Position numbers and translations under genes: made by a program. From an uncultured Pseudomonadales bacterium (lineage in GTDB: Bacteria > Patescibacteriota > Microgenomatia > UBA1400 > PJMF01), in contig CAZUHV010000001.1 in the NCBI GenBank assembly GCA_964620965.1, positions 85,839-149,838 on the forward strand: a DNA stretch of 64,000 nt, read 5' to 3'. How positions within the stretch are numbered: position 1 is the stretch's first letter; every line of letters starts with the position of its first letter. Below the pieces are notes generated by a model. That model ran no database searches. It had not been told where the DNA came from and saw only the letters and a list, made by a program, of their open reading frames with translations. This document shows positions 10,250 through 64,000 of this stretch, piece by piece.

Positions 10250-10252
10250 AAA

Positions 10253-11542: not shown

Positions 11543-11600
11543 ATCTATCTCTTTCTATACTATACCAATAAAGCAAAGTCTGTGTGAGATTTCAAGTATA

Positions 11601-34151: not shown

Positions 34152-34225
34152 GGCCCCATCGTCTAGCGGTTAGGACACCAGGTTCTCATCCTGGTAACCA
34201 GAGTTCGATTCTCTGTGGGGTCACC
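34152..34225 (+). tRNA. tRNA-Glu (anticodon CUC)
   Basis: Acceptor GGCCCCA/TGGGGTC. D arm TCGTCTAGCGGTTAGGACA. Anticodon stem CCAGG/CCTGG with loop TTCTCAT. T arm AGAGTTCGATTCTCT. Discriminator A then CC encoded. Confidence 0.8.
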
Positions 34226-35743: not shown

Positions 35744-35939
35744 AATTCAGCTGGTTTAGTAATTCATCTAACGTTTTTCCTTCAAACATTTCTTTTTCAA
35801 AGTCGTCTAACCAACTAGTTGCCAAAAATTTAATTTCAACAACTGAATCTTGCAAAATTTCTTGAGGAATTGGTGAGTTTTCACCAGTGTAGGTATTGGG
35901 GTTATTGTCTAATTCGTGGCTATTTTTCATCTCGATCAA
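35736..35939 (-). CDS. hypothetical small acidic protein (candidate recombination directionality factor)
   Basis: 67 aa, pI acidic. Its stop overlaps the recombinase start by 8 nt. The functional assignment is speculative. Confidence 0.3.
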   Translation of the reverse strand: MIEMKNSHELDNNPNTYTGENSPIPQEILQDSVVEIKFLATSWLDDFEKEMFEGKTLDELLNQLNYD

Positions 35940-35948
35940 CCCTTATTT

Positions 35949-35991
35949 AACTATCCATATACGGTTAGTATATATACTATTACGGATAGTT
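35949..35991. promoter_or_regulatory. nested palindrome (candidate operator or recombinase-binding site) upstream of the T4CP gene
   Basis: Outer inverted repeat AACTATCC/GGATAGTT encloses a perfect 14-bp palindrome TAGTATATATACTA. A TTGCCA-17-TATACT promoter follows at 36009..36037. Confidence 0.4.
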
Positions 35992-36071
35992 GTCAACACT
36001 AATTTATTGCCAAAAACCAGAGGTTGGGGTATACTCCAACACAACATTGTCTGCCCAAAGAAAAGAAGGGC

Positions 36072-38660: not shown

Positions 38661-39322
38661 TTGCTTTTAACAATTTTTCCATCTTTGATTATTGGAAAGA
38701 AATTGAATGTATCAACCTCTAGTGCCAAGTGAAAGTCATCCTCGGGAAAATTATCATTTTGAGGATTAAGAAAGCTATTCAATATCCATTCATGTTGTTC
38801 AAGCTTTGCTTTCACTTCCTCGAGAGAAGGATGTGTCTCACCTTTTAATTTACTTACCATGTACTCAGCAAAAAGTTGATCTTCTAAAGCATACATTGGG
38901 ACGAATGTAATATCTTCAGATTGACTGGCTTTTAAGAAATCCAAAATTGCTTGAGCAGAAACGAATGACCCAAATATTATTTGATTTGCATTTGTAGAAT
39001 TAACTAAGCCTTGTGTGCCAGTTGAACTTCTATGAATAACCTTTTTTCCATCCAAATTATTAAGGGTTTTTATAACTGATGGAGAATTACCGATATCAAA
39101 ACCATCAATCTTAATTCCCTTATTTTCACCAACAAGCAACACTTCTTCATCCTTCATCTTAAAGTCAAAAGCCTCTTCTGGGGTTGCAACAGGATGAATT
39201 GAAGTCACACCTTTATCAAGTAAATATGATGCAACAGTTGCTGCCCTCAGAACGTCAATTATTATCGCAATACCATTAGCACTTTGCGCCCCTTTAATTC
39301 CTTTGACAATTTTAATATTCAT
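38657..39322 (-). CDS. 2-phosphosulfolactate phosphatase (ComB) family protein
   Basis: IIDVLRAATVASY and GIKIDGFDIGNSP motifs typical of PF04029. Confidence 0.55.
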   Translation of the reverse strand: MNIKIVKGIKGAQSANGIAIIIDVLRAATVASYLLDKGVTSIHPVATPEEAFDFKMKDEEVLLVGENKGIKIDGFDIGNSPSVIKTLNNLDGKKVIHRSSTGTQGLVNSTNANQIIFGSFVSAQAILDFLKASQSEDITFVPMYALEDQLFAEYMVSKLKGETHPSLEEVKAKLEQHEWILNSFLNPQNDNFPEDDFHLALEVDTFNFFPIIKDGKIVKSN

Positions 39323-39348
39323 ATTTTTCCCTTAAGCATATAAGTTCA

Positions 39349-40083
39349 TTATGCTTTACTCATACTATTTATTGTTCGTGCAATACTTAGCCAATCACTT
39401 TTTTTTAATCCATACGCTACTGGGTGTGGGATTACAAAGAAATGAGTAGTACCTTTTCTGCAATGATATAGATTTTTATTTTTCCTAAACTTCTCAGAAA
39501 CAATATCACTCCATTTATCTAAATATGATAAAGAATAAAAAATTACTACCTTTGGATTATGTTTTTTTAGTAACTTTTTAAATAAATCAATTCTTATTGG
39601 CATTACATGCTCTAAATATGTTTTTCTTGTTTCTAAATAATCAATCTTAAATTGGTCATAAAACCAATCTTTTTTTCTGACTGACTTACAAGGAAGTGGC
39701 ATGAACTCTAAAACACAGTGATCACTATGTGATCTAGCAAAGTTATTTCGTTGATATTGTTTTATTACATCTAGACTAACTTCTTCACTTGAATACAACA
39801 TAAGTAATATGAGAATAAGTTTTGACCAGGTTCTCTGACTTGGAGCATCTGGTAAAAACCATTTAATGTGATCAGGGACATGCTTCATATCAGATTTGAT
39901 ATCTATGACAGATTTATCTTTGGTCTTAGTAAACCTTTTTTCTAAATCTGATAGGCTGCCATCAAAACCTTCCTCCATACCAACAAACCAAGTATCAGAG
40001 TCAAGATTCCCATACCCCCAGTAGTTTTTTATTCTATTTTCGATTAATTCTTTATTTAACATACCTAATGCTTGATTATACAT
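39349..40083 (-). CDS. hypothetical protein (possible UDG-superfamily-like fold; weak)
   Basis: 244 aa. N-terminal GMEEGFDG and C-terminal VIPHPVAYG are spaced like UDG motifs A and B. This is inference only. Confidence 0.3.
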   Translation of the reverse strand: MYNQALGMLNKELIENRIKNYWGYGNLDSDTWFVGMEEGFDGSLSDLEKRFTKTKDKSVIDIKSDMKHVPDHIKWFLPDAPSQRTWSKLILILLMLYSSEEVSLDVIKQYQRNNFARSHSDHCVLEFMPLPCKSVRKKDWFYDQFKIDYLETRKTYLEHVMPIRIDLFKKLLKKHNPKVVIFYSLSYLDKWSDIVSEKFRKNKNLYHCRKGTTHFFVIPHPVAYGLKKSDWLSIARTINSMSKA

Positions 40084-40262
40084 TGATTTAAACTTAAGAT
40101 TACTCTATTAAAAAACTGCCCCTACCGTCTAGGACAAAAATAAGATACTTTCCCAGATACGAATCAAAATATTCTTTACCTCTATTCCCTTATATAATAA
40201 GGGGAGGGAATGATACAATACCTCACAATACAGAAAATAGCCTGCCCATAGTAAATAACACT

Positions 40263-41030
40263 ATGGATACCATAACTCCTAAACAATTAGAAATCCTCAT
40301 ACTAATATATCGTTTCCGTTTCCTTAATCGTCACCAAATCCAAATACTCCTTAATCATAAAGACCCCAAACGAATAAACTCCTGGCTTAAAGATCTCAAT
40401 CAAAAAAATATCCTCGGTAGAATCTACTCAACTAAACTCAAAGAAAATACCAAACCAGCGATATACTACCTAGCTACCAAATCAAGAAAAATACTTCTTG
40501 AACAAGAAAATACTAACGAGAAAATTTTAAGAAGAGCCTACAGGGACAAAAATGCTTCTCAAAAATTAATAAATCACAGCATCTTTCTAGCCAATGTCTA
40601 TTTATTACTTAAAGAACAAGCCCTCAAAAACAAACAAGAACTTCATTTTTATACAAAAACTGATTTAGCAGAACACTACTACCTGCCATATAACCGACCA
40701 GATGTGTATATTTCCCTGAAAGGGAATGACTTAACAAAGCGTTATTTCCTAGAAATCATTGACAAAGGTACACCACGCTTTATGCTTCGAAAGAAAATCT
40801 CTCAATACATTGAGTACTTTGACGAAGGAACCTGGCAAAATAGGACGTTACATGAAAAACCATCACTTTTATTTATCTCTCCAAATCAAAATATCTACAA
40901 CTTCCTCACCAAACATATTGCTCAAGTTTTGGAGGAGGAGACTTCAGACTTACAATTTTTCCTAAGTCTGAAGTCAGAGATACAAGAAGCTGGCTTAACT
41001 GCCAACACTTGGCACCTCATCAGCGAGTAA
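40263..41030 (+). CDS. replication-relaxation family protein (PF13814-like, putative relaxase or mobilisation protein)
   Basis: N-terminal ITPKQLEILILIYRFRFLNRHQIQ winged-helix signature of the Replic_Relax family. Confidence 0.55.
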   Translation: MDTITPKQLEILILIYRFRFLNRHQIQILLNHKDPKRINSWLKDLNQKNILGRIYSTKLKENTKPAIYYLATKSRKILLEQENTNEKILRRAYRDKNASQKLINHSIFLANVYLLLKEQALKNKQELHFYTKTDLAEHYYLPYNRPDVYISLKGNDLTKRYFLEIIDKGTPRFMLRKKISQYIEYFDEGTWQNRTLHEKPSLLFISPNQNIYNFLTKHIAQVLEEETSDLQFFLSLKSEIQEAGLTANTWHLISE

Positions 41031-41780
41031 TACCGCCAGCACTTTTTCAACTGTTCCCATCGCCTTAGTTATGGCAATGAGTGGATCATCTGAATAGTGG
41101 CTAATATAGCTCCAAGCTTTCCCGCTAGAATCTCCCATGCCGTACAAGTCCATCAATACTGCAGATGTAAACTCGGCTACTGTTTCTTGTGTCTTGTTTT
41201 GTCCTTGCTTTAGCTCTCCATCTATTCGCGCGTGTATCGCATGGGCTAATTCATGAAAAAATACTCCTGCATCGTGTGTACCAAGTCTGATTTTGCTACC
41301 ATCAGTTTGACAATCACCAAGCTTATCAGGACTAATAGGTGCATACTCAACATCTATACCAAATTTTTTAGCCACATCTAGCAACGGAGGATATTCTACT
41401 GGCTCGTAGGTTGATACCATTTCATCACCCTCAGTGCATGAAGCTGCAAATACTGGAATAGGAGCAAACCCAACACAAATATTTTTTGTATCCTCTTCGT
41501 TTTCCTGATCAACCTTTGCGAGCTTGGGTCTGAGTATATACACTGCTTTACTACCTTTTTTGACCGTTCTGCCTTCTTTTTGCCACTGTTTATACCCTCG
41601 GCAATCAAGCTCATCTGACTGTAAAAAGGCTAGCACTTTATTTGATAAACTCCACTTATTAACTGGAGCATCACTAGCAACTTGAATGCGAGCTATTCTT
41701 GTCACAGTTGATAAGTCTCCAGTTTGAAATTTTTCTATTACTTTGTTGATGCTTGCCTGTGCTTTTGCTGATAGTTTCAT
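40995..41780 (-). CDS. ArdC-like antirestriction protein (ssDNA-binding ArdC-N plus zincin metalloprotease-like domain)
   Basis: KWSLSNKVL...RGYKQWQKEGRTVKKGSKAVYI matches the ArdC-N pattern. C-terminal HExxH (FHELAHAIH). Confidence 0.55.
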   Translation of the reverse strand: MKLSAKAQASINKVIEKFQTGDLSTVTRIARIQVASDAPVNKWSLSNKVLAFLQSDELDCRGYKQWQKEGRTVKKGSKAVYILRPKLAKVDQENEEDTKNICVGFAPIPVFAASCTEGDEMVSTYEPVEYPPLLDVAKKFGIDVEYAPISPDKLGDCQTDGSKIRLGTHDAGVFFHELAHAIHARIDGELKQGQNKTQETVAEFTSAVLMDLYGMGDSSGKAWSYISHYSDDPLIAITKAMGTVEKVLAVLLADEVPSVGS

Positions 41781-48160: not shown

Positions 48161-48200
48161 CGAATTGCTCTGAGAAACTCTCAAAGCAATTAAGTATTAA
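48161..48200. repeat. 40-bp palindromic repeat, copy 2
   Basis: CGAATTGCTCTGAGAAACTCTCAAAGCAATTAAGTATTAA. On the minus strand the hairpin is followed by a T-run, so it may act as the terminator of 48190..48495. Confidence 0.8.
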
Positions 48201-48495
48201 AAATCAAATAATCATACAGAAACATAACTGCCCACAAACAAAAGATTGAGATAATCAAATAAGCAAGCTTTCTATTCCAACCCCGCTTCAACTGTGCCAA
48301 CGAGCCCAACAGAATTACTATCTCAAATGGATAAGTAATAAAATCACAGTAACTTCCACACCAATTCTTTTCTAAAATAACTACATCTGTTGCAAAGCTA
48401 TTTAAACCAAAACTTTGCTGCACATCTCTAACAATATGAAACACTGAGAAAAGTACTAACAAACCAAAAACATATTTGTATGCATTCTTTCTCAT
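48190..48495 (-). CDS. hypothetical small membrane protein
   Basis: Three TM helices. ATGA overlap with the upstream nuclease gene. Confidence 0.35.
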   Translation of the reverse strand: MRKNAYKYVFGLLVLFSVFHIVRDVQQSFGLNSFATDVVILEKNWCGSYCDFITYPFEIVILLGSLAQLKRGWNRKLAYLIISIFCLWAVMFLYDYLIFNT

Positions 48496-49997
48496 ATCAC
48501 TTTTTGTAACTCTTCCAATATCCTCACCATCGCAAAAGTATCAAGTGTGCAATAACGGCTCAAATCATCCATAATCATTGGTCGTTTTTCTCTGTTTTTA
48601 CCTTCCAAAACGGTTTGTGTCCACATTCTGCGAGCTAGTAATCCATCAGAAACATTAAGCTCTTTGTAGCTTAACTCAGGAGCTAATACTGGCATAACTT
48701 TCTTGACCGAGGCACTGCCAAAAAAATCTTTATCAAAAAACCACATCTTAGCAAATGGAGTCATCAAATCGTCTATGCGATCATTGAGATCTGCCAGGAA
48801 ATCTGCATACTCTGGAAACAGTTCTGCCATTCGATCATTACAACCTTTTTCATAACTCATGTTCCAAGTAAGCACAGTACCAGTTGTACCAATATCTTGC
48901 TTGAGCTGAGCTAATAATCCTGGCATTGGATCTGTTGCTTGGTTATGTAAATACTCTAAGTGTTTTAACTCTGCACCTGGGCTTTCAATTATGTGTAACG
49001 AATATTGGAATGGATAATCCTTGTATGGGCTATATCCATCAAATTGAGGAACTACTGTTGAGAGTGTTTCGTAATCAAAAAAGTAGAGTGGATACTGGAA
49101 CGTATCTAAAAAGGCTTTAATCTTGTCTTTATCAATAATTCGCTGACCAGTTTTAGTGGTTCTAATTTGAACTCGTTGTTTATCTCTTAAAGCTTGGTCT
49201 TCTGTCATCTCGTGAATTGAAGAAATGCCAAGATCTTCTAGATCCCCAAGTTGTTCTGGGCTTGGATAAGCAAGGTTGTAAATGGAGTAGGTGTCATATT
49301 CACCTTTGATGTTTTTATAAATCTCCATCCATTCTTCAAGCCACTGTGATGATTTGTTTGGAATACAAAGTTGATTAATAAATCTTGGTGAAACATCTGG
49401 CATAGTTCTATTTGCCAATACTTCAAAGGCCATATCTACTTGTAAAAGTGTGGTGCTCATCAAGGCGCGAACTTTATCTGTGATATCTGTTTTATCAACC
49501 AAACCAGCAGGATCAATTTCCCCCTCACGCACATATTCTTTGTTTGCATGCATCACAGCTACATTGCGAATTTTTAGTCCTGCTTTTTCTAGTACCAACA
49601 GTTGAAATGCTAAATCATATTCGTGTTCTGGTTTAGCTTTAGTGCTAGCTTTAATTTCAATTAAGTCAAAAGTTTCATCCGGATGTTTGAATAATACATC
49701 AGTAATACAAGTTAAATTATCAACTTCAAACCTGCCTTGAAAAATAACTTCTGCGCCTTGTTGTAAAGCTTGCTGAGTTCGAGCAGGTAGACTCAAATAC
49801 TCATCATAATTATTGAATCCAAGTCGAACCCCATTGGGAAATAGGCTTTCGGCATATTGCTCAAAGTCATGACCTGCATCAAACATGGCTTGCGTATTGT
49901 CATCAACTGGAGGTAATTTATTTTTGTCATACTTCTTTAGCCACAACCATGCAGGATGGCGAAGAAAGAGCATGTAGTCGGATTTACTTAATATCAT
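48492..49997 (-). CDS. dual-nuclease protein: N-terminal PD-(D/E)XK (Cas4/RecB-like) plus C-terminal DnaQ/RNase H-like exonuclease-like domain (DUF2779-like)
   Basis: D...FDLIEIKAS fits the PD-(D/E)XK core. C-terminal LYFFDYETL resembles DEDD exonuclease motif I. The start ATG overlaps the RloC-like stop (ATGA). Confidence 0.5.
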   Translation of the reverse strand: MILSKSDYMLFLRHPAWLWLKKYDKNKLPPVDDNTQAMFDAGHDFEQYAESLFPNGVRLGFNNYDEYLSLPARTQQALQQGAEVIFQGRFEVDNLTCITDVLFKHPDETFDLIEIKASTKAKPEHEYDLAFQLLVLEKAGLKIRNVAVMHANKEYVREGEIDPAGLVDKTDITDKVRALMSTTLLQVDMAFEVLANRTMPDVSPRFINQLCIPNKSSQWLEEWMEIYKNIKGEYDTYSIYNLAYPSPEQLGDLEDLGISSIHEMTEDQALRDKQRVQIRTTKTGQRIIDKDKIKAFLDTFQYPLYFFDYETLSTVVPQFDGYSPYKDYPFQYSLHIIESPGAELKHLEYLHNQATDPMPGLLAQLKQDIGTTGTVLTWNMSYEKGCNDRMAELFPEYADFLADLNDRIDDLMTPFAKMWFFDKDFFGSASVKKVMPVLAPELSYKELNVSDGLLARRMWTQTVLEGKNREKRPMIMDDLSRYCTLDTFAMVRILEELQKVI

Positions 49998-52213
49998 ATT
50001 TTCTCAAGCAAACTTAAAAAGTCGTCTAATTTCTGTATTTTTTCAGGTTCATTCAACTTCATGATTTCGTGTTGATCATGCATATGTTCATGCCAGTTAT
50101 TTTCTAAAATATCATCTTTAACCAAACACTTGTCACCAATTTTTTCTAGATATGCAGAAATACTCCCCTCAGAAAGAGTCTTTTCATCCAAAGAGAAATA
50201 ATACTTGTGTCTCAAAATTCTTTCCAAGCACTTACGTACCTTACCAATTGCTTCATCAACATTTCTATTGTTATCAACTGAATCTTTAATAAACTTTACG
50301 CTTTTGAAAAATTCTTCCTCAATAACGTTTTCCACATCACACTTTACTATGCTAGAGCCTGCAGAACCTGAGTTTTTAATTTGAAGAAATTTGGTTTCAT
50401 TTTTTGGTATTTTGCTTTGCAATCTAGCCAAAAAGCTATCATCATGAGTAAGTATAATTACCTGCTCTGGCTCTTCATTTGATTGATTTTTAATTTTGAC
50501 TATAGTCCTAACCAACGCGTCCTTGCGATTTGAATCTAAACTTGAAAAAGGATCGTCAAAGACAACAATTTTTTTGTTTAAAAATTTATCTGTTTGTAAT
50601 TTTGATATAAAAATTGCAATTGCCAACAATCTTCTATCGCTATCACTTAACGTATTCCCAAAGTAATATTTATCCTTAGGCTCAATGTCGTCCTGAGATC
50701 TTTTATTTGAAATAGGAACAACTTGACTGCCAAATGCAAATTCGTAGTCAACAAAATGTGATTTTGATCTAGTTAAGTTCGAGCGACTATCTAATTTCTG
50801 TATTGAGAACTCTGCCCTAAGTTCATTTTTCAATACTTTTTCAATTTCTTTTTGATTATCTACAATTGTTTTTTTTGTCTCCTGATTAATTTCGTCTCTT
50901 AGGTTTTTCACTTCCTTCTTCTTGTCTTTGATGAGTTTTTCTGCATCAAAATAGTCTTTTGTTAAACTCACTCCTTCTTTGCTATGCCTGTATTTAGATA
51001 GCTTTAACTTTTTTAACTGATTTAGTAAATTTCGATAATCTTGTTCAGAGAATTCCTGTTTAAGTATTGAATCAAATACAGGGTGAAGTTTTTTAATTTC
51101 AATCAAGAATAATTGAAATGGTTTATCTTTTGAGATTAAATCAATCGAATAGTTTAAATTCTTTAATTTTTTATCAATTTCTTTGTCTAGATCCGCTTTA
51201 TTTTCCAGTAACTCCTTCTTATTTAACAATTCATCACAGTTAATTCCTAGAGGGTTAAGTTTTGCTATTTCTGCTTCAGGATCAAATCGCAAAAAGTTTT
51301 CTCCCGCTGATTCAATTTCTTTTTGAACTTGTCTATACGTTGCGCCAAAAACGCTCTTAAAATCTTTTATTAAATCTTTTACAGGCTCTAAGTCTTGCCC
51401 ACAAAAAACACAGTTTTTAGACTCATCTTTTAAGATAGCAACACCTTCTGAAATAAAATTCTTAGATGCACTTGCGTCTTTCCAATGATTATGAATATGA
51501 TTTTCAATGCTTACTTCAGCTGAAGTATCTAACGATTTCTCCATTGCTAACTTAAAGTTCTCAAATTTTGACGCCAATGGGGAATGCTTAATCTGTTCCT
51601 TAATTGATGAAATATTATTTAGGCGTTTAATTTCTGTTTCTTTTTTTGAAATTTTGTCATCAACACTCTCTACTTTTTCTGCTTTAAGAAATTCCTCAAA
51701 AGTTCCCAGATCAACTTTTATATATTTATTTTTTACTTTGTCTCTATCACTTTCTAAATCTGCTTGTTCATTACGAAGCCTCTTGAGAGCAAGTACTTTA
51801 TCACCTATGTTTTCTCCTACAAATATTCCATGAAGTGAAGCTTTATGTTCAAAATCAATTTGATCTCCTAGATAAACGTAATTTTGAACAAAGTTACTAT
51901 CAAATACAACAATATTTGGATTACTCCAGTTACCGTTTGATAGAGTGGAATGTTTATTATTTTCATCCAAAATATCAATCTCAGAACTTTCTGAATATCC
52001 GAAAGTCTTTTTACCCTTCAACAATCCTTGATCAGAATTTTTTAAGGATCTAAATATCGTTGTCAAAGTGCTTTTGCCATAAGTGTTATGTCCAAAAATA
52101 ACAGTTCTTTTGAAAAAACGTAATTCATCATCTCCAGAACATGTAAATTGCTTGAACTTTCCAATTCCTTTGATTTTTATAATTTTACTAATCATTTTTT
52201 CCCTTACTACCAC
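49994..52213 (-). CDS. RloC/PrrC-like ABC-type ATPase with coiled-coil zinc-hook insert, putative restriction-linked anticodon nuclease
   Basis: Walker A FGHNTYGKSTL. Long Lys/Glu coiled coil containing CVFC (CxxC hook). D-loop/Walker B VVFDDPFSSLD. C-terminal R-x3-H (RILRH) and a His cluster. Co-operonic with hsdR. Alternative start at 52195 (MISKIIKIKG). Confidence 0.55.
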   Translation of the reverse strand: MVVREKMISKIIKIKGIGKFKQFTCSGDDELRFFKRTVIFGHNTYGKSTLTTIFRSLKNSDQGLLKGKKTFGYSESSEIDILDENNKHSTLSNGNWSNPNIVVFDSNFVQNYVYLGDQIDFEHKASLHGIFVGENIGDKVLALKRLRNEQADLESDRDKVKNKYIKVDLGTFEEFLKAEKVESVDDKISKKETEIKRLNNISSIKEQIKHSPLASKFENFKLAMEKSLDTSAEVSIENHIHNHWKDASASKNFISEGVAILKDESKNCVFCGQDLEPVKDLIKDFKSVFGATYRQVQKEIESAGENFLRFDPEAEIAKLNPLGINCDELLNKKELLENKADLDKEIDKKLKNLNYSIDLISKDKPFQLFLIEIKKLHPVFDSILKQEFSEQDYRNLLNQLKKLKLSKYRHSKEGVSLTKDYFDAEKLIKDKKKEVKNLRDEINQETKKTIVDNQKEIEKVLKNELRAEFSIQKLDSRSNLTRSKSHFVDYEFAFGSQVVPISNKRSQDDIEPKDKYYFGNTLSDSDRRLLAIAIFISKLQTDKFLNKKIVVFDDPFSSLDSNRKDALVRTIVKIKNQSNEEPEQVIILTHDDSFLARLQSKIPKNETKFLQIKNSGSAGSSIVKCDVENVIEEEFFKSVKFIKDSVDNNRNVDEAIGKVRKCLERILRHKYYFSLDEKTLSEGSISAYLEKIGDKCLVKDDILENNWHEHMHDQHEIMKLNEPEKIQKLDDFLSLLEKI

Positions 52214-55047
52214 TCAAACATATCTACTATATTCTCAATAGCACTCCTCACACGATCGATGATGCTTTGACGTTCTAAAATTCTTGGGGCTTCTGGGAGA
52301 AGATCAACAATATCTTGTCCATGTGGAAGTTTTTGTGTATATAAATACTCGCCAATAATATTTTCAAACTTTTCTAGTGGAATATTTTCAGCTTGTGCTA
52401 CTTCTCGCAGTGCAGAGGAGCGTTCACTTGCCCAGAATTTCTCAAAGGCTTCTTCAACATTTTCATCTTCTCTGATCTTAGGTAGATTCTCCTCAATAAA
52501 TTTACGGATAAGTTCTTTCTTTTTGCGAAGCTTCACATCGCGATCAAATAATCTGAGAATATCTTCTGTTTTCTTCTCACGAACTACATCTGAACTAATG
52601 TCTTTAAGTCCAGCAATAAGCTGAATAATGTAGTCAAAATCAACTACATCACGAACAGTGAGCTCTAATTCAAAGTCGATTTGATCCAAAATGGATTCTT
52701 TTTCAGGCTCATGAGTTTTTCTTTCCTCATGAATATCAAGATACTTACTTTGGTAATCATAAAATTCTTGTTCTGTAATACCCAAGTCATCAAATGAGAA
52801 TTCTGCAAAGGTTTCGAGTGAAGACTTAATTCGAAGCAAATCTCTAAAGCTTTTAACAAATGCAGCCTTATCTTCTTCACCTCGCAAATCATCAACTGAA
52901 GAAACAGTAGGTACTTTTACTCGTAAGTGAGCAAGCTTTTCTTCAAACTCCTTTTTCTGAACTTCATATGGCTTCTTGAAAACAACTTCCTTAGCGTTTT
53001 CATCACCAAACAAAGCAAGAGCTTTGTCAGTATTCAGTTTAAGGTTTCTAAAAGAAACAATGTTTCCATGCGGTTTGTCAGAGTTCAGCAAACGATTTGT
53101 TCTGGAATAAGCCTGGATTAGTCCGTGATATCTCAAATTCTTATCAACGTACAAAGTGTTGAGTCTTGGGCTATCAAATCCAGTTAAGAACATGTTTACC
53201 ACAATAGTTAGATCAACTTCTTTGTTTTTAATTCGCTTCTGTAGATCTCGATAATAGTCATAGAATCTGTCAGTAGAGTAATTTGTGCCGAAATCCTTGT
53301 TGTAGTTTTTGATACAGCTTTCTAAGAAATCTCTTGAATGCTGATTTATCACATCACCCTTATCAGCAAACACGTCAACATCAAGCATGTCTGCACTATC
53401 ATCCTCATTTGCTTGATAGGTAAAAATTGTAGCGATTTTAAAATCATCAGGTTTCTTAGCAGAAAGCAGAGTGTAGTATTTCTTTAATATCTCAATACTT
53501 GGAGTGCAAAAAAGAGCATTAAACTTGCCATTCTTTGTTTTACGCTTCCAATCATGAAGGATATATTCAGCAATTTTTTCTATTCGCTCATCACTTTCGA
53601 GAACTTCTTTGGTGTCAATACCTTCAACCATAGTTTCAGCAAAGATGTCAGCATCTAGAGTATCAGGGTCTTTTTTCTTGTACTTACCAACATACTCAAC
53701 TGCAAAACCAAGCACATTATTGTCATCAATAGCGTGGGTAATAATATAGCGGTGCAAGCATTCACCAAATACATCTTTTGTAGTTACACCACCAACATTG
53801 TTATCAGCAAATATCGGTGTTCCAGTAAAACCAAAGAGTTGAGCTTTATTAAAATGACTCTTTATTCTATTGTGGGTTAATCCAAACTGACTGCGGTGAC
53901 ACTCATCAAAAATAATGACTACTTTTTCATCTTGCAGATCTTCAAATTGTTTAAGATACGATTCTCTGGAAACTGCAATATCTAGCTTTTGGATTGTAGT
54001 AACTATGAGTTTTCTCTTTGGCTCTTTAAGCTGTTTTACTAAGTTACGAGTATTATCCGTTCCATCAACAGAACCATCAGAAAAGTGATTAAACTCTTTT
54101 GTTGTTTGAATATCGAGGTCTTTACGATCAACTACAAAGATAACTTTTTTAATTTCGGGTAACTGTGAAAGAATCTGACTGGCTTTGTATGAAGTCAAGG
54201 TTTTTCCAGAACCAGTGGTATGCCAAATATAGCCATTCTGGTTAGTTTCTTTAACCTTTTGCTCAATAGCTCTGACTGCATAGTACTGATAAGGGCGGAG
54301 TACCATTGGAATTTTAAGAGATTCATGCAACACAATATATTCAGCAATCATGGATGAGATTTTGCATTTTTCTAAAAACGCCTCAGCAAATTGATTAAGT
54401 TGTGTAATTTTTTTGTTTTCTTCATCTGTCCAATAGAAGGTTTGTTCAAATGATTGCTTTGGATTATTAGAAAAGTATTTTGTGTTTACACCATTAGAGA
54501 TAATAAAAATCTGGACGTATTCGAATAAAGTTCCTGAAAAAGAATGTTTGTGATAGCGTTGAATCTGATTGAAAGCCTCCTTCATTTCAACGCCACGGCG
54601 TTTGAGCTCAATTTGCACTAAGGGAAGACCATTTATGAGAAGGGTAACGTCATAGCGATTTTCATACCTTCCAGCTTGAGTGACTTGATTTGTGACTTGG
54701 TACTCATTCTTGCACCACTTATCCATGTTGAAAAATCGAACCCAGAACTTTGTCTCATCATCACGAGTCAGCACAAATCTATCTCGCAAAGTTTTTGCTT
54801 TTACAAAGCGGTCACCTTTTTCAAGATGATTGAGTATGCGAGAAAATTCGGTATCAGAGAAAATTGTGTTGTTAAACTTTTCTAGTTGTGACTTAAGATT
54901 TTGATTTAATGACTCTACATCTGGCAAAGAAACCCTATCAAAACCCAAGTTTCCAAGTTGTGCTATTAATTCGTTTTCTAGTTGTAGTTCTGATTGCGCC
55001 ATAATTTTATCTATACAAACATTTGTTGTAACAGTCCCTTTTTCCAC
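52207..55047 (-). CDS. hsdR: type I restriction enzyme R subunit
   Basis: SF2 helicase motif I GYIWHTTGSGKTLTS. DEAH box FDECHRSQ. N-terminal nuclease region. The likely true start is 55002 (MAQSELQ). Confidence 0.85.
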   Translation of the reverse strand: MEKGTVTTNVCIDKIMAQSELQLENELIAQLGNLGFDRVSLPDVESLNQNLKSQLEKFNNTIFSDTEFSRILNHLEKGDRFVKAKTLRDRFVLTRDDETKFWVRFFNMDKWCKNEYQVTNQVTQAGRYENRYDVTLLINGLPLVQIELKRRGVEMKEAFNQIQRYHKHSFSGTLFEYVQIFIISNGVNTKYFSNNPKQSFEQTFYWTDEENKKITQLNQFAEAFLEKCKISSMIAEYIVLHESLKIPMVLRPYQYYAVRAIEQKVKETNQNGYIWHTTGSGKTLTSYKASQILSQLPEIKKVIFVVDRKDLDIQTTKEFNHFSDGSVDGTDNTRNLVKQLKEPKRKLIVTTIQKLDIAVSRESYLKQFEDLQDEKVVIIFDECHRSQFGLTHNRIKSHFNKAQLFGFTGTPIFADNNVGGVTTKDVFGECLHRYIITHAIDDNNVLGFAVEYVGKYKKKDPDTLDADIFAETMVEGIDTKEVLESDERIEKIAEYILHDWKRKTKNGKFNALFCTPSIEILKKYYTLLSAKKPDDFKIATIFTYQANEDDSADMLDVDVFADKGDVINQHSRDFLESCIKNYNKDFGTNYSTDRFYDYYRDLQKRIKNKEVDLTIVVNMFLTGFDSPRLNTLYVDKNLRYHGLIQAYSRTNRLLNSDKPHGNIVSFRNLKLNTDKALALFGDENAKEVVFKKPYEVQKKEFEEKLAHLRVKVPTVSSVDDLRGEEDKAAFVKSFRDLLRIKSSLETFAEFSFDDLGITEQEFYDYQSKYLDIHEERKTHEPEKESILDQIDFELELTVRDVVDFDYIIQLIAGLKDISSDVVREKKTEDILRLFDRDVKLRKKKELIRKFIEENLPKIREDENVEEAFEKFWASERSSALREVAQAENIPLEKFENIIGEYLYTQKLPHGQDIVDLLPEAPRILERQSIIDRVRSAIENIVDMFEW

Positions 55048-56237
55048 TCTTTTGCTTCTTTTATTTGGTTAACTTTTAATTCTATTAACTGGTCAATGGA
55101 TGAAACAAAATCAACGATTTTTGCTTGTTCTTCTTCGGAAGGATATGGTATCGGCATATCCATTAAATCTGAGGTTGATATTGCCATACGGTCGTGACGT
55201 GCTCCGTAGTTTGCAACTTTTTTCATATATTTATGCCAAAGACTAGTGTCGAAATATTTTTCATAAAAATACTTGTTTCCTTTTTTCAATTCAAGAACTG
55301 TATATAATGGAGACATTACACCAGTTTGGAGTGAATTCATTTTCATAGGACCAACGGGAGCACTTGTTGATATTCTAGGGTTGTATACAAAGTCATCAAT
55401 TTCAACAACATAATAATTCATTAAATTATTCTGATTCACAATATCTCTATCAAAATAATCATTTTGGCTCACAATCCCTTCTGAAGCTGAATTAGTCAAA
55501 ACATGATTTATTTTATTGTTAGTATTCTTTTTTGTTTTTCTTAAAAAAATATCTTTGAGTTTTCTCATTTCCCAATCTGGGTATTTTTTACTATCTTTAC
55601 CATTAAATCTTAATTCTTTTGTAAAAATCTTTTGAGTCATTCCTTTCTTATATTCTTCAAGCGTATCCTTTTGTTTTTCTAGGTTAATAATCCAACCATT
55701 TATTGTTGATAAAAAAGATGCCAATTTTTTTTGTTCGTCAATGGTTGGAATATTTACTTTAATTGATGAAAAATTTTCATAGAATAAGTATTGTCTTACT
55801 CCACCCTCAACATATCTTTTGACAAATCTATTAAATAAGTCAGACTTAAAAAAATGATACATAAATATATCATCAACATTGTCTGTTGTTGAAAAACAAA
55901 CATAAAGTGAGCTAATGATGACATTGTCTAAATCACCACTAAATCCAATGGAACCCACATTTATTCTGGCAGGGTTATATGCAAATGTATTTCTCTTAAC
56001 TACTTTATACATTGAAGTATCATAATTTCTCTCATTACTATCAAGTCCATCAAATTGTTCAGATTGTGGTAAAAAACCTCTTACATTATTAATCGAATAT
56101 ATTGGATATTTTTTTCCACTTTTATTTTTATTATTTTTTTTCTTTGTAATCTCACCAAGTTTATATTGAGTCCACATTCCAAAGAATCCTGGGAACCTCA
56201 ATTGTGGCTTTGCTTGCATATTTTTACTACTTTTCAT
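55011..56237 (-). CDS. hsdS: type I restriction-modification specificity subunit
   Basis: Two target-recognition domains separated by conserved helical spacers (LEKQKDTLEEYKKGMTQKIF ... LKVNQIKEAKEWKKGLLQQMF). Confidence 0.8.
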   Translation of the reverse strand: MKSSKNMQAKPQLRFPGFFGMWTQYKLGEITKKKNNKNKSGKKYPIYSINNVRGFLPQSEQFDGLDSNERNYDTSMYKVVKRNTFAYNPARINVGSIGFSGDLDNVIISSLYVCFSTTDNVDDIFMYHFFKSDLFNRFVKRYVEGGVRQYLFYENFSSIKVNIPTIDEQKKLASFLSTINGWIINLEKQKDTLEEYKKGMTQKIFTKELRFNGKDSKKYPDWEMRKLKDIFLRKTKKNTNNKINHVLTNSASEGIVSQNDYFDRDIVNQNNLMNYYVVEIDDFVYNPRISTSAPVGPMKMNSLQTGVMSPLYTVLELKKGNKYFYEKYFDTSLWHKYMKKVANYGARHDRMAISTSDLMDMPIPYPSEEEQAKIVDFVSSIDQLIELKVNQIKEAKEWKKGLLQQMFV

Positions 56238-57816
56238 ACTTAAAAGGATTGTCTATTCCTAACTCATCACAAAATGTATCTAGTTCTTTTCTATATTTTT
56301 GTTCTTTATGTTGATAATCTTTCAAATTTTTTGCAACTAGATCTAAATCCACAGGCTCTTCCTCTTCAAATGAATCAATATATCTAGGTATATTGAGATT
56401 AAAGTCATTTTCATATATCTCTTTCAGACTAACTCTACGAGAATATTTATCAACTTCTTTTCTTTCATTATATGTATGAAATATTTTATCAATGTGACTA
56501 TCACTAAGACGGTTTTGTGTGCCAACCTTTTCAAATTCGCTTGATGCATCAATAAAAAAAATATCATCATCTTCTTGTCTGCATTTTTTGAAAACTAATA
56601 CTATCGTTGGGATGCCTGTTCCATAAAACAAGTTTGCTGGCAAGCCAATAACAGCATCTAAGTAATTTTGCTTCTCAATAATATATTGTCTAATAGTTGC
56701 ATTTGACCCTCCAGTGAAAAGCACGCCATGTGGCAAAATAACAGCCATAGTTCCATTTTCGGTCAGGTGGTAAAGCATATGTGTCACAAATGCATAATCA
56801 GCTCTACTTTTAGGAGCTAACCTTCCATATTGTGAAAACCTTTCATCATGTAACAAAGCTGGATCTGACTCTCCCTTCCATTTTGCTGAAAATGGAGGAT
56901 TGGCTACCACTGCCTCAGCTTGCAGATCTATGTGCATATCATCTGTAAGCGTGTCACCTTGTCTAATGCTGAAATGATCAAAGTGAACTCCATGAAGGAT
57001 CATATTCATGCGAGCTAAGTTGTATGTAGTCGGGTTAAGCTCTTGTCCATAATAGGAAACTACGTCTGCATACTCACCAATTCTTAAGAGAAGAGAACCA
57101 GATCCACAGGTTGGGTCATAGACTGATTTAACTCGTTTTTTGCCATGAGTCACAATCTTTGCAAGAAGTCTAGAAACTTGAGCTGGAGTATAGAACTCTC
57201 CGCCTTTTTTACCTGCCCCTGCGGCAAACTCACCAATTAGATACTCATATGCATCACCAAGCAAGTCACTTTTTGTGTCTTCAAGTTTAAAATCAATACC
57301 ACTAAGCAGAGTCAGCACTTCAACAATTACTTCATTCTTTTTGTTTTCTGACTTACCCAACTTGGTTGAAGTTAAATCTACGTCATCAAATAATCCTTTG
57401 AAATCATCTTCGCTAGCTGTTCCCATTGAGGTTTGCTCAATAGAGTTAAGGACATTCTTGAGGTTTTCTAAAATAAAAATATCTTGACCTTTAACTTCAC
57501 CATTACCTTTTCTGACAATGTAAGAAAAAAGCTCTGTAGGTTTGAGGAAAAAGCCTAAGTGATCAATGGTAGCTTTTTTAATATGCTCGACAATCTGTTG
57601 ACCTTCGTCAGTTGAGTCATCTACCTCAGCAAAAGAGAATTTTTCACTAGCCAGAAGTTTTTCATCAATATAGCGAGCAAGTTTTTCTGAAAGATATTTA
57701 TAGAAAATGAAGCCAAGAATATAGTTTTTATATTCGTCTGCATTCATTTTTCCCCGGAGAACATTGGCTACAGCCCAAAGTTGCTTTTCAAGTAATCGTT
57801 TTTGTTCTCCAGACAT
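56227..57816 (-). CDS. hsdM: type I restriction-modification N6-adenine DNA methyltransferase subunit
   Basis: N-terminal HsdM_N (LWAVANVLRG). SAM motif DPTCGSGSLL. Catalytic NPPF (VANPPFSAKW). Confidence 0.85.
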   Translation of the reverse strand: MSGEQKRLLEKQLWAVANVLRGKMNADEYKNYILGFIFYKYLSEKLARYIDEKLLASEKFSFAEVDDSTDEGQQIVEHIKKATIDHLGFFLKPTELFSYIVRKGNGEVKGQDIFILENLKNVLNSIEQTSMGTASEDDFKGLFDDVDLTSTKLGKSENKKNEVIVEVLTLLSGIDFKLEDTKSDLLGDAYEYLIGEFAAGAGKKGGEFYTPAQVSRLLAKIVTHGKKRVKSVYDPTCGSGSLLLRIGEYADVVSYYGQELNPTTYNLARMNMILHGVHFDHFSIRQGDTLTDDMHIDLQAEAVVANPPFSAKWKGESDPALLHDERFSQYGRLAPKSRADYAFVTHMLYHLTENGTMAVILPHGVLFTGGSNATIRQYIIEKQNYLDAVIGLPANLFYGTGIPTIVLVFKKCRQEDDDIFFIDASSEFEKVGTQNRLSDSHIDKIFHTYNERKEVDKYSRRVSLKEIYENDFNLNIPRYIDSFEEEEPVDLDLVAKNLKDYQHKEQKYRKELDTFCDELGIDNPFKYEK

Positions 57817-57965: not shown

Positions 57966-58079
57966 CTGATACAATTTACAACCAAAAGTAAAGCGTTATA
58001 ACAAGAGCTGCCCACTAGTGAGGTAGCTTTTTTTGTAACACCTGCCCAACAAACTTTAATTAGTGAAAGGGTCGTGTTT

Positions 58080-58412
58080 ATGAAAAAACTCATAGTTCTC
58101 CAAAGCATATTACTTACTTCCTTAGTCGTGGCGAGTCCAGCATTTGCTCAGTCCGCAGAAGTAGGACAAATTCAATCATTTATCCAAGAAGTGATTCAGA
58201 TCATGGTCACTTTGTCTGGCTTTATCGCAGCAGGCTTTATTGTCTGGGGCGGAGTTGGTTACATTACTAGCTCTGGAAATCCAGAAGCTTTAGAAAAATC
58301 TAAAAAGACTATTCTGTATTCTGCAGTCGGGCTGACCTTAGTACTCGGTGCGTTTGTTATCTCAAACATGGTGAGCCAGGTAGCAACTACTGCATTTGGA
58401 TCTGGAATGTAA
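58080..58412 (+). CDS. VirB2/TrbC-like pilin
   Basis: Signal peptide ending AFAQS, then two hydrophobic helices separated by SSGNPEALEKSKKT. The ORF track starts at GTG 58074. The ATG at 58080 has an AAAGGG RBS. Confidence 0.5.
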   Translation: MKKLIVLQSILLTSLVVASPAFAQSAEVGQIQSFIQEVIQIMVTLSGFIAAGFIVWGGVGYITSSGNPEALEKSKKTILYSAVGLTLVLGAFVISNMVSQVATTAFGSGM

Positions 58413-58437
58413 TTGATTAGAAAAGGAATACGTATTG

Positions 58438-59736
58438 ATGAGAAGAGTACTATCAACTATTGGAACAACCGCACTTGTTTTCCTTTTCTTTAGTTCTCCT
58501 GTTTTTGCTCAATCAACTAACCCTGATGTCATAGAATATACAAACAGTACATTACAAATCATCACTTTAATAGCGACCGCATCAGCGGTCTTTTTTTTAG
58601 TTAAAGCAGGATATCTCTACATCACCTCAGCTGGAAAACCTGAAGTTCTTGAGTCTGCCAAGAAAACTATCCGTAATGCAGTTATTGGCTTAACTTTAGT
58701 TTTAGCTGCAAATGTTGTCACCTCTGTTTTTCAGCATGCTTTAAATTCGCAAACAACTACTGGCTCTGGCACACCCATAGATATCGTCAGTATAGAAGCT
58801 GTTGAACCATCTGAAGGACTCACTCAAGTTTTAATTGATGCCATTGGAGGCTTTATCCAAAATATTGTGGAGAGTTCTACTGAGCCAATTGTGAATGGGG
58901 TGCTTGGATACCTGACAACCACACCAACACTTTTAAACAATGAGGTGGTTCGCAATTTTTGGTTTATTTCAGTCGGTATTGTGGACGCTTTATTCATCTT
59001 GGTTGTAGCCCTAATGGGCTTGCAAGTCATGAGTGCTAGTACCTTTGGTTTTGATGAAGTAGAGCTTAAACAACTGCTTCCAAGGTTAGGACTTACTTTC
59101 TTGGCTGCAAATATTTCACTCTTTCTAGCAGACTACGCCATTATCACCTGCAATATGTTGGTAAAAGTTATCTTAGATTCAACAGGAGGACTGAACCATG
59201 CTTGGATAGAAGCTGCTTTTAACCCTACAGCAGTCATTTCTGGAACTACGCCACTGATCATTTTGATATTTATGGTGCTGTTTTTAATTGTCTCAATCGT
59301 GTTACTGCTTATGTACATCAGTAGGCTCATTTTTATTTCCCTTGGGGCAGTTTTGTCACCATTTATCTTTCTGCTTTCAGCTCTGCCTAAATTTTCTGAC
59401 TTTGCCTTGATTGCCATAAAGACTTACCTTGTTAGTATTTTTATCGTGTTTGTTCATGTGGTGATTATTCAGCTCGCCAGCTCATTTTTAACTCTGCCAG
59501 ACCACAGTGAAAACTCAATCATTTCAATTGCCGTCGGGATTGGACTTTTTATCACCTTACTTAAAACCCCAAACCTCATGATTCAGATGGTGATGTATAC
59601 CGCTAATTCTGGAATAATGAAAAAGCTCGGGAACCAAATTATTAACGTGATGACAACAGATAACGCATCCGTTGCTAGTAGAGCTCAAGCTCAAAATACT
59701 GCCTCAAAACTAACTAGAAAGGCCATCAAAATATGA
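58438..59736 (+). CDS. fusion of VirB2-like pilin module to VirB6/TrbL-like polytopic membrane protein
   Basis: The first roughly 100 aa are a paralogue of the preceding pilin (VFAQS...SAGKPEVLESAKKT...). These are followed by at least 6 TM helices typical of VirB6. ATGA overlap with the next gene. Confidence 0.5.
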   Translation: MRRVLSTIGTTALVFLFFSSPVFAQSTNPDVIEYTNSTLQIITLIATASAVFFLVKAGYLYITSAGKPEVLESAKKTIRNAVIGLTLVLAANVVTSVFQHALNSQTTTGSGTPIDIVSIEAVEPSEGLTQVLIDAIGGFIQNIVESSTEPIVNGVLGYLTTTPTLLNNEVVRNFWFISVGIVDALFILVVALMGLQVMSASTFGFDEVELKQLLPRLGLTFLAANISLFLADYAIITCNMLVKVILDSTGGLNHAWIEAAFNPTAVISGTTPLIILIFMVLFLIVSIVLLLMYISRLIFISLGAVLSPFIFLLSALPKFSDFALIAIKTYLVSIFIVFVHVVIIQLASSFLTLPDHSENSIISIAVGIGLFITLLKTPNLMIQMVMYTANSGIMKKLGNQIINVMTTDNASVASRAQAQNTASKLTRKAIKI

Positions 59737-60239
59737 GAAGCCAAGTCATACCAGCTCAAATAACCACAGTAGAAGATAAGATTGCAGGCAACTTTAGTCT
59801 GACACAGATCATGCTACTGCTTATGCCAGTCTTGATTGCAACATTTATCTACACTTTCCTACCACCTACCATGACTTTTGTTATCTATAAGCTAGTTCTA
59901 GCAAGTATCTTTGCAGTTTTAAGTATCACGCTAGCTGTCAGAGTCAAAGGCAGAATCATCTCCAGTTGGTTAGTTGTTTTGATTCGGTACAACATTAGAC
60001 CAAAGTATTACATCTATAACAAAAACTCAGTGATTTACCGAGAAGTTATAAAGCCAGAAGTTCAAAATATTGTTGTTAAACAGAAACATGATGAAAAAGT
60101 TGCACAAAAACAACTTAACTCCCCAGATATCAAAGATGTATTAAAACTTCGCCATCTTCTAGACACAACTGATTTCAATCTAACCTATCGCTCTGGCAAG
60201 AAAGGAGGACTCAATGTGGCTTTTGAAAAAATCTCTTAA
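59733..60239 (+). CDS. VirB3/PrgI-like small two-TM protein
   Basis: N-terminal hydrophilic region, two adjacent TM helices, cytoplasmic tail. Sits between the VirB6-like and VirB4 genes. Confidence 0.4.
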   Translation: MRSQVIPAQITTVEDKIAGNFSLTQIMLLLMPVLIATFIYTFLPPTMTFVIYKLVLASIFAVLSITLAVRVKGRIISSWLVVLIRYNIRPKYYIYNKNSVIYREVIKPEVQNIVVKQKHDEKVAQKQLNSPDIKDVLKLRHLLDTTDFNLTYRSGKKGGLNVAFEKIS

Positions 60240-60834
60240 CAAAATTAGCTCTCGTAACCAAATTGCTATCAAAGAAGTTCGTGATGGAATCTTGGTTCTA
60301 CCAAATAACGAACACCGACTGATTATTGAAACTTCCTCAGTTAACTTTGAGCTTAAAAGTGAAGCGGAACAAGATGTATTAATTGATAGCTTTCAAACAT
60401 TTCTAAACTCACTGCCCTCTCAACTGCAAATCCTGATTCGCATTCGTGAAGTAGATATTGACCAATACGTTGATTCCATTGATCTACTCAAAGAAACGGA
60501 AGATGAAAAGCAATACATAGAACAAATTAATGACTACACTCAATTTATTCGCCAACTCGTATCTGGCAACAAAATCTTGTCTCGCAAGTTTTACATCGTC
60601 CTACCTTACAAACCGGAAACCAAAGGCAATACTTTTGAGCTAGCCCAAGCTCAACTCAATTTAACTCAAGATATGGTAATTAAAGCTCTAGAAAAACTAG
60701 GAATGAAGGCAAGGAAGCTCGATAGCTTAGAAGTTTTACATCTCTTTTATAGCTTCTACAACAAGGGACAGATAAAAACTCAGGAATTAACCAGCACTAC
60801 TATGAAAGCAATACTACAACACAACTATGTTTAA
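60214..60834 (+). CDS. VirB4 N-terminal domain protein (split VirB4, part 1)
   Basis: Pattern AIKEVRDGILVLPNNEHRLIIETSSVNFELKSEAEQ...FQTFLNSLPSQLQI resembles the VirB4/TcpF N-terminal domain. Its stop overlaps the next start (ATGTTTAA). Confidence 0.45.
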   Translation: MWLLKKSLNKISSRNQIAIKEVRDGILVLPNNEHRLIIETSSVNFELKSEAEQDVLIDSFQTFLNSLPSQLQILIRIREVDIDQYVDSIDLLKETEDEKQYIEQINDYTQFIRQLVSGNKILSRKFYIVLPYKPETKGNTFELAQAQLNLTQDMVIKALEKLGMKARKLDSLEVLHLFYSFYNKGQIKTQELTSTTMKAILQHNYV

Positions 60835-63934: not shown

Positions 63935-64000
63935 TTCCAGCATTAGTAATTACTTAAAGTATTTTTTTATGCTTTAGTTCTTACTAAAGGTTTTTTTGCC

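Follow-up and report, generated by a model that had tools for sequence, protein, structure and literature searches.

A DUF2779-family dual nuclease gene that borders a variable defence slot on its downstream side

We analysed a stretch of 64,000 nucleotides (referred to below as the window) from contig CAZUHV010000001.1 of assembly GCA_964620965.1, positions 85,839 to 149,838, which has a G+C content of 35% and is 95% coding. At the centre of the study is an open reading frame (ORF) of 501 amino acids (aa) that lies directly behind a gene for an RloC-like ATPase and a type I restriction-modification (R-M) system. Judging from its sequence, its product belongs to the DUF2779 (PF11074) family, in which a predicted Cas4/RecB-type PD-(D/E)XK domain and a predicted DnaQ-like DEDDy exonuclease domain are joined in one polypeptide. 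An initial annotation, made by a model from the sequence alone, had placed the ORF at 48492-49997 with an ATGA overlap at its start; both details hold, and the gene is on the minus strand. The features on which the argument depends are the following.

48492..49997, minus strand: gene of the DUF2779-family dual nuclease, 501 aa (PF11074, E = 4.8e-38; PF01930, E = 9.4e-5)
49413..49997, minus strand, about aa 1-195: N-terminal Cas4/RecB-like PD-(D/E)XK domain with D100, E114, K116 and Q132 (Pfam and PADLOC Cas4 matches)
48495..49112, minus strand, about aa 296-501: C-terminal DUF2779 domain, a predicted DnaQ-like DEDDy exonuclease, with D308, E310, E383, Y482, D486 and D410
49994..52195, minus strand: RloC-like AAA_13 ABC-ATPase and predicted anticodon nuclease, 733 aa from M7 (PF13166, PDC-S06)
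52207..55047, minus strand: hsdR, type I restriction subunit (TIGR00348, E = 4e-146; HSDR_N, SWI2_SNF2, EcoR124_C)
55011..56237, minus strand: hsdS, specificity subunit (PF01420, E = 1.3e-19)
56227..57816, minus strand: hsdM, methyltransferase subunit (PF02384, E = 1.3e-108; HsdM_N)

The ATG of the DUF2779 gene (49997..49995) shares its ATGA with the TGA of the upstream ORF 49994..52213, and its stop overlaps the ATG of the next ORF in the same way (48492..48495). The upstream ORF probably begins at M7, ahead of which lies an AAGGG Shine-Dalgarno-like sequence (733 aa, 49994..52195). For hsdR, the likely start gives a protein of 931 aa with the gene ending near 55002; it is also called with 931 aa on the source contig.

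A predicted nuclease with two catalytic domains

The Pfam profile PF11074 matched aa 305-430 over its whole length (positions 1-126 of 126), scoring 130.7 bits against a cut-off of 23.3. PF01930 (Cas4) matched aa 100-182 with 23.0 bits, barely over its gathering score of 22.7. Two further families matched below threshold, namely the NCBIfam UU173 family (50 bits against a cut-off of 225) and TIGR03491, the TM0106 RecB-like family (aa 14-157, 24.8 against 97.45). In PADLOC-DB v2 the protein yielded weak matches to Cas4 adaptation modules (E >= 1.4e-5) and none to any other known or candidate defence protein model. Homologues with E < 1e-5 number 2585; the top 120 are 62-84% identical and come mostly from assemblies of Patescibacteria (candidate phyla radiation, CPR). 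The window protein also aligns collinearly, over its full length, with annotated DUF2779 proteins from plasmids.

The initial annotation had read a PD-(D/E)XK core in the segment FDLIEIKAS (aa 110-118) and motif I of a DnaQ-like exonuclease in FFDYETL (aa 306-312), and had counted a lack of conserved catalytic residues as refuting. In 39 close homologues, the PD-(D/E)XK set (D100, E114-I-K116 and Q132) and the DEDDy set (D308, E310, E383, Y482 and D486) were invariant. Both sets of predicted metal-binding residues, together with D128 and D410, were likewise invariant across 14 sequences of 26-67% identity from the CPR, Campylobacterota, Cyanobacteriota, Bacillota, Rhodothermota and Pseudomonadota; the distant members added here were annotated plasmid DUF2779 proteins of 26-34% identity (from Aliarcobacter, Helicobacter, Planktothrix, Selenomonas, Salinibacter, Rhodoferax and Sphingobium). 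These results, with the two Pfam matches and the fold comparison below, bear out the Cas4/RecB-like reading of the N-terminal half and the DnaQ/DUF2779-like reading of the C-terminal half. One detail needs correction: the E-I-K of the segment is conserved as E114-I-K116, but D111 varies among homologues and the catalytic aspartate is D100.

In the C-terminal domain, the Exo I motif is D308-Y-E310, the Exo II-like motif N379-M-S-Y-E383 and the Exo III motif Y482-C-T-L-D486. As far as motifs can tell, the pattern D-x-E, N-x-x-Y-E and Y-x3-D is that of a DnaQ-like exonuclease of the DEDDy form. In the alignment, the four-cysteine Fe-S cluster of Cas4 is absent from the window protein and the other CPR members, which have 'RHPAW' and no cysteine triad, while plasmid homologues from outside the CPR retain an N-terminal 'CPK' and a later C..C..C. 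All four cysteines are lost in the Patescibacteria clade (at aa 14 and about aa 205-225 of the window protein) and kept in proteobacterial, cyanobacterial and Bacillota members.

Predicted folds are consistent with both domain assignments. The AlphaFold model of the whole protein (predicted local distance difference test, pLDDT, 72) had as its best Foldseek match the Cas4 protein 8d3l_I of the type I-C Cas4-Cas1-Cas2 complex (probability 0.96, E 0.016), with ACE1, RNase T and Maelstrom ranking lower. Because the two-domain model gave weak matches, aa 290-501 were modelled alone (pLDDT 88), and the best match of this model was the DnaQ domain 8h2f (probability 1.00, with a weak E of 0.0099), followed by RNase T and Maelstrom. 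Since the E-values are modest, we regard the fold evidence as supportive and not as decisive. A sequence-profile search of solved structures returned nothing relevant; its sole match was vimentin (E 0.49).

The dual-nuclease architecture is not new, since it has already been published. In Majorek 2014, PF11074 is family F.17, assigned within the RNase H-like superfamily to the 3'-5' exonuclease clade and noted to be fused to a PD-(D/E)XK-like DUF83 domain (PMC3985635). According to an mSphere article of 2026, the JCVI-syn3.0 protein MMSYN1_0389 combines a Cas4-like nuclease with a DEDD nuclease in which Tyr replaces the DEDDh His; this protein is quasi-essential and was not assigned a function (PMC13621843). 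A defence-island setting of DUF2779 genes was not described in the literature that we searched.

Exchangeable defence genes upstream of DUF2779

A scan of DUF2779 genes in one genome per species returned 80 loci. The gene immediately upstream was co-oriented with DUF2779 in 64 of 73 loci, at a median gap of 15 bp. Of the 61 loci with 3 kb or more of upstream sequence, at least 39 had a recognised defence gene in one of the three positions upstream (28 of 33 for closer relatives), the 39 being a lower bound from label propagation based on Pfam and PADLOC scans of upstream genes. Downstream of DUF2779, a recognised defence gene was seen in 6 of 59 loci.

In related Patescibacteria, the upstream cargo is usually co-oriented and at most 50 bp from the DUF2779 start. 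It includes R-M genes (type I HsdR/M/S, type ISP, IIL of the MmeI type, type III Mod/Res and type IV GmrSD), DISARM-like genes, a PLD-SNF2 helicase with an Eco57I-type methylase and DUF4365, and a Gabija-like set (OLD/AAA_15-TOPRIM and UvrD, similar to GajA/GajB). Other loci carry SIR2 with HerA, a PHP-ATPase, other AAA_13 genes, an AAA_11 helicase with an MTES_1575 endonuclease, Schlafen-type helicases or reverse transcriptases. A link to defence islands had been suspected in the initial annotation, and the linkage of DUF2779 genes with R-M and other defence genes proved stronger than supposed there. The DUF2779 gene forms the downstream border of a variable slot for defence genes.

Exchange of the slot's content can be followed in the closest relative, locus L002, whose DUF2779 protein is 94% identical to that of the window. 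At the DNA level, the two loci are 91.6% identical over the end of hsdS and the whole of hsdR (55100..52196) and 91.7% identical in a second block confined to the DUF2779 ORF (49986..48507), downstream of which they are unrelated. The interval between the shared blocks contains the 2.2-kb RloC-like gene in the window (52196..49986) and a 4.2-kb pair of OLD/AAA_15-TOPRIM and UvrD genes in L002 (3789..8012). The homology breakpoints coincide with the gene borders of hsdR and DUF2779.

The far flank of the slot is a conserved type IV secretion system (T4SS) module.

58074..63253, plus strand: T4SS module with TrbC/VirB2-like pilin, second pilin, PrgI, VirB4-like ATPase and M23 peptidase (Pfam)

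Three other loci (L004, L023 and L032) have the window's T4SS pilin flank on one side, DUF2779 on the other and different cargo in between; across the three we found PLD-SNF2 plus a methylase, another type I system and a PHP-ATPase. Levels of DUF2779 identity follow the T4SS backbone; they do not follow the cargo. Compared with the window, L032 has identities of 84% for DUF2779, 95% for VirB4 and 87% for the pilin, and the values for HsdR and DUF2779 are 85% and 66% in L008 and 23% and 59% in L023. These comparisons show that the hsdMSR and RloC-like genes are exchangeable cargo and that the slot is bounded by the T4SS pilin operon and the DUF2779 gene.

The gene that fills the slot next to DUF2779 in the window had been called RloC-like in the initial annotation. 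Its product matches PF13166 (AAA_13, E = 3e-24) and the PADLOC candidate PDC-S06 (E = 3e-59). In an alignment of 23 homologues, Walker A, C262-x-x-C265, R654-x3-E658 and the H-loop were invariant, and the protein has a histidine 44 residues past E658, which gives Arg-X3-Glu-X43-His. The published signature of RloC combines an ABC-ATPase head split by a coiled coil, a CxxC zinc hook and a C-terminal Arg-X3-Glu-X36-52-His (PMC2610378). Given the AAA_13 match, the CxxC zinc-hook motif and the C-terminal motif, the name RloC-like is a fair fit.

We examined six contexts of RloC-like orthologues (57-63% identical, loci L082-L096), none of which had a DUF2779 gene within 7 kb. One orthologue lies behind an AlwI-type II system, another overlaps the type ISP gene that precedes it by 4 bp, a third is flanked by type III mod and res, and two come after an EcoRI-like methylase and a GmrSD_N-HNH pair; the upstream side of the sixth ends at the contig end. 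These contexts indicate that the RloC-like gene is tied to R-M systems independently and that the nuclease is not its partner. According to published work, rloC is seldom linked to R-M loci. The Patescibacteria clade resembles prrC in its R-M linkage, yet across system types.

The same question can be asked from the side of the nuclease. AAA_13 genes adjoined DUF2779 in 3 of the 80 scanned loci (upstream in L044, downstream in L018 and L079), all of them from other AAA_13 subfamilies; on either side, any AAA_13 neighbour was present at 4 of 81 DUF2779 loci and missing at the other 77. These counts come from Pfam scans and an alignment-built profile, because a phmmer search with the window AAA_13 protein missed the other subfamilies. 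The ATGA overlap is weak evidence of coupling, since overlaps are routine in the window (among 44 neighbouring co-directional pairs, 15 overlap, and five of these do so by exactly 4 bp) and the DUF2779 stop overlaps the next ORF too. At other loci, ten unrelated upstream genes overlap the DUF2779 start by exactly 4 bp.

Together, these results show that the DUF2779 gene is not specifically paired with the RloC-like gene, their adjacency being one of many interchangeable arrangements. The proposal that the nuclease is an obligate, translationally coupled partner of RloC fails on these counts and on the Gabija-like pair in L002; that of a new system made of the two is not supported either, the architecture being already in print. 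The co-occurrence that the initial annotation had suggested looking for exists with R-M and defence genes in general and is missing with RloC.

Possible roles of the nuclease

We consider it probable that this dual nuclease at the edge of the defence slot is a DNA-end processor serving the systems encoded upstream. It would act independently of a helicase, with the Cas4-like domain trimming 5' ends and the DEDDy domain 3' ends. The gene could be read through from whichever defence operon sits upstream, and its product may degrade linear DNA originating from the upstream systems, which mostly cut DNA, or from DNA entry. By analogy, this would be a 'finisher' role like that of RecBCD/AddAB in small genomes. 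A further role is suggested by the sharp break of homology at the ends of the DUF2779 ORF: its conserved sequence might double as a recombination anchor for cassette exchange.

A more general version is possible, and we put it forward tentatively. The whole Patescibacteria DUF2779 clade would then be a generic defence component, a helicase-less dual exonuclease encoded by the last co-transcribed gene of many DNA-targeting systems (type I/ISP/IIL/III/IV restriction, Gabija-like, SIR2-HerA, DISARM-like). It would destroy broken invader DNA and stand in for RecBCD/AddAB, and its ORF would be the homology anchor for cassette exchange. A supporting role in defence, in either version, has precedents. 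Nucleases of the Cas4 family are known as accessories of non-CRISPR defence, as in UvrD-Cas4 fusions or in ACE1, which accompanies pAgo (PMC12094033). Solo-Cas4 is over-represented in CPR and DPANN, and in DPANN it has been found beside R-M genes (PMC5704561).

Two features at the 3' end of the gene bear on its transcription.

48190..48495, minus strand: hydrophobic ORF of 101 aa, whose ATG overlaps the DUF2779 stop (ATGA)
48163..48191, minus strand: terminator-like hairpin (13-bp stem and T run) directly after the 101-aa ORF

The 101-aa ORF has no family match in Pfam, NCBIfam or PADLOC and is probably the last gene of the co-oriented run. The hairpin may end a transcription unit that extends from hsdM to this ORF; such sites occur at chance level in total, so that its position alone is suggestive. 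A promoter scan also stayed at chance level and was uninformative on operon structure. As a candidate partner of DUF2779 the 101-aa ORF was rejected: a homologue lies beside DUF2779 in just one other locus (L038).

A different neighbour recurs on the 3' side in a sub-clade. In eight loci (L006, L007, L008, L011, L013, L014, L020 and L027, at about 9540-11750 in locus coordinates), a trypsin-like peptidase of 363 aa (PF13365) lies directly 3' of DUF2779. It is followed, directly or past one short ORF, by an unannotated protein of about 366 aa in six of them (L006, L007, L011, L013, L014 and L020). In that sub-clade, the peptidase may be a partner or form a module of its own.

Distant homologues on seven plasmids (L098-L104, from Aliarcobacter, Helicobacter, Planktothrix, Selenomonas, Rhodoferax and Sphingobium) have WYL regulators, PLD proteins, DEAD/DEAH helicases, NERD, SbcCD-like genes and a dGTPase among their neighbours. 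In several cases, a large NTPase is encoded directly upstream of the plasmid DUF2779 gene, which hints that the nuclease may be an effector for varied NTPase sensors. We also considered a single conserved ATPase partner on plasmids and dismissed it: the NTPases are unrelated (NACHT/STAND, ClpB-like AAA+, GHKL, double AAA), and none is AAA_13. A CRISPR link through the Cas4-like domain was likewise discarded, as the window holds no repeat array, CRISPR Rfam match or cas gene, and no cas families were seen among the neighbours.

Several observations weigh against a role of the nuclease in defence or against parts of its assignment. The Cas4 Pfam match is only marginally over threshold, the typical Cas4 Fe-S cysteines are gone from this clade, the E-values of the fold matches are weak (0.01-0.02), and biochemical data on any PF11074 member were not found in the literature searched. 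The contrast between upstream and downstream neighbours is exaggerated, because the defence labels were derived mainly from upstream genes; in an unbiased Pfam count of the genes directly downstream, about 10 of 65 were defence-like (GmrSD, AbiEii, SMODS, NERD, AAA_13 and UvrD). In L045/L046 (998..9479, about 50% identity), DUF2779 comes straight after rpoC-dnaG-rpoD. On rich medium free of phage, the family member of Mycoplasma is quasi-essential; like the rpoC-dnaG-rpoD setting, this fits general repair better than immunity. The tracking of the T4SS backbone would fit a gene that passively flanks a hotspot equally well.

The last three of these points favour a housekeeping nuclease, acting in repair or recombination of the chromosome or the element, which merely flanks an insertion hotspot and has no defence role; solo-Cas4 has also been reported to evolve mainly vertically. 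We find this explanation doubtful. It sits poorly with the close spacing and strong co-orientation that DUF2779 shows towards unrelated defence genes upstream and with the conflict-type genes (WYL, PLD, STAND, GHKL) around the distant plasmid homologues. Four assemblies, moreover, have two diverged DUF2779 copies with identities of 66-84% (L010/L020, L017/L033, L026/L028 and L037/L038), and one pair, L010 and L020, lies on a single 1.08-Mb contig (JACKFW010000001.1) with both copies linked to islands.

A further point against housekeeping is the 98% identity between the copies in L020 and L007, which come from differently named metagenome-assembled genomes (MAGs) and share the same downstream genes; this likeness points to a recent transfer or to double sampling of one population. 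Loci L003, L004, L008, L010, L013, L014 and L062-L064 have Patescibacteria-like gene content under titles such as Pseudomonadales, Gammaproteobacteria, Burkholderiales or Flavobacteriales. Because the labels of many MAG contigs are probably binning or labelling errors, taxon names were not used as evidence.

Another alternative assigns the nuclease to the backbone of a conjugative or integrative element, where it would process transferred or incoming DNA, assist establishment, exclude competing elements or counter host defence. The window has the following features of such an element, which make up its near end (34152..41780).

34152-34225: tRNA-Glu
34163-35743, minus strand: large serine recombinase, whose 3' end overlaps tRNA-Glu
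36024-38660, plus strand: T4 coupling protein (T4CP)
40263-41030, plus strand: Replic_Relax protein
40995-41780, minus strand: ArdC-N-like protein

The order along the window is tRNA-Glu, recombinase, T4CP, Replic_Relax protein, ArdC-N-like protein, metabolic cargo, the 101-aa ORF, DUF2779, rloC, hsdRSM and T4SS. The region looks like a putative integrative conjugative element (ICE) at tRNA-Glu with its far boundary past the window end (position 64000). DUF2779 has the relaxase/T4CP/ArdC module on one side and the T4SS pilin/VirB4 module on the other, it co-diverges with T4SS proteins, and T4SS or ICE markers stand no more than 8 kb from it at about 12 other loci (L004, L005, L017, L023, L032, L042-L044, L056 and L070). 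Full-length homologues also occur on 30 plasmid records. Against a backbone function, 26 of these 30 plasmids are typed as non-mobilizable, and most loci, whose flanks are short, have no T4SS gene within 8 kb. A phage origin was rejected, with no matches in 50,697 phage records and only 3 contigs in IMG/VR, which counts against the backbone explanation as well. T4SS clusters may also be chromosomal core genes in these bacteria and not ICE genes. On balance we regard this alternative as unlikely.

A dedicated module of the RloC-like ATPase and the DUF2779 nuclease, resembling Rad50/SbcC with Mre11/SbcD and having the nuclease as obligate DNA-end partner or effector, could draw on the ATGA overlap, on the Rad50-like coiled coil and zinc hook of RloC, which has no known nuclease partner in the literature, and on the AAA_13 genes of other subfamilies at positions -1 (L044) and +1 (L018 and L079), but it is largely refuted by co-occurrence on both sides, by L002, in which a Gabija-like pair takes the place of the RloC-like gene between hsdR and DUF2779, and by the commonness of gene overlaps in this genome; we consider it highly improbable and the pairing incidental.

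Comparison with known systems

DUF2779 is a large family without an experimentally tested function, of which one member is quasi-essential in JCVI-syn3.0. The window gene adds to this known, uncharacterised family, and the part that we found described in no paper is the association with a defence slot, which is worth a systematic test. The steady position at the 3' edge of defence cargo leads to a concrete hypothesis, namely DNA-end degradation downstream of restriction, and it makes the region just upstream of DUF2779 genes a practical place to seek new defence systems of Patescibacteria.

The window protein shares the order of its two domains and the catalytic residues, including Tyr for the DEDDh His, with the described members of the family (F.17; MMSYN1_0389; Mbov_0804; UU173). 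In contrast to these, it is placed in defence islands. It belongs to a compact Patescibacteria clade of about 500 aa, to which the Mycoplasma proteins are distant kin, and differs from proteobacterial and cyanobacterial DUF2779 proteins by lacking the Fe-S cysteines.

With Cas4, solo-Cas4 (PF01930) and ACE1 the protein has in common the predicted PD-(D/E)XK core, D...ExK and a conserved Gln, and Cas4 is its best structural match. It departs from Cas4 in the missing four-cysteine cluster, the fused DEDDy exonuclease, a Pfam score at threshold and a window free of CRISPR and cas genes. The TM0106/COG2251 family (PF13482 RNase_H_2 with a Cas4-like domain; Majorek F.13) is an analogous fusion of a Cas4-like domain and an RNase H-fold exonuclease, but its C-terminal family is different; the window protein is not a member, because its score is far under the cut-off. 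A TM0106-family gene was seen near the DUF2779 gene on the Sphingobium plasmid.

The proposed likeness to RecBCD/AddAB is an analogy that would consist in two nuclease activities of opposite polarity on DNA ends made by restriction. Unlike those enzymes, the window protein has no helicase domain and shows no sign of Chi-like regulation. The arrangement of the window also recalls the restriction-linked ORFs (rlo genes, prrC) of type I R-M loci, where an RloC/PrrC-type gene likewise lies beside or inside the R-M operon.

As a whole, the slot is similar to hotspot 5 of the SXT ICE, which has conserved flanks and exchangeable defence cargo. It differs from ICE hotspots in that one flank is a predicted nuclease, with the cargo on its 5' side and co-oriented with it, in most loci and across many lineages.

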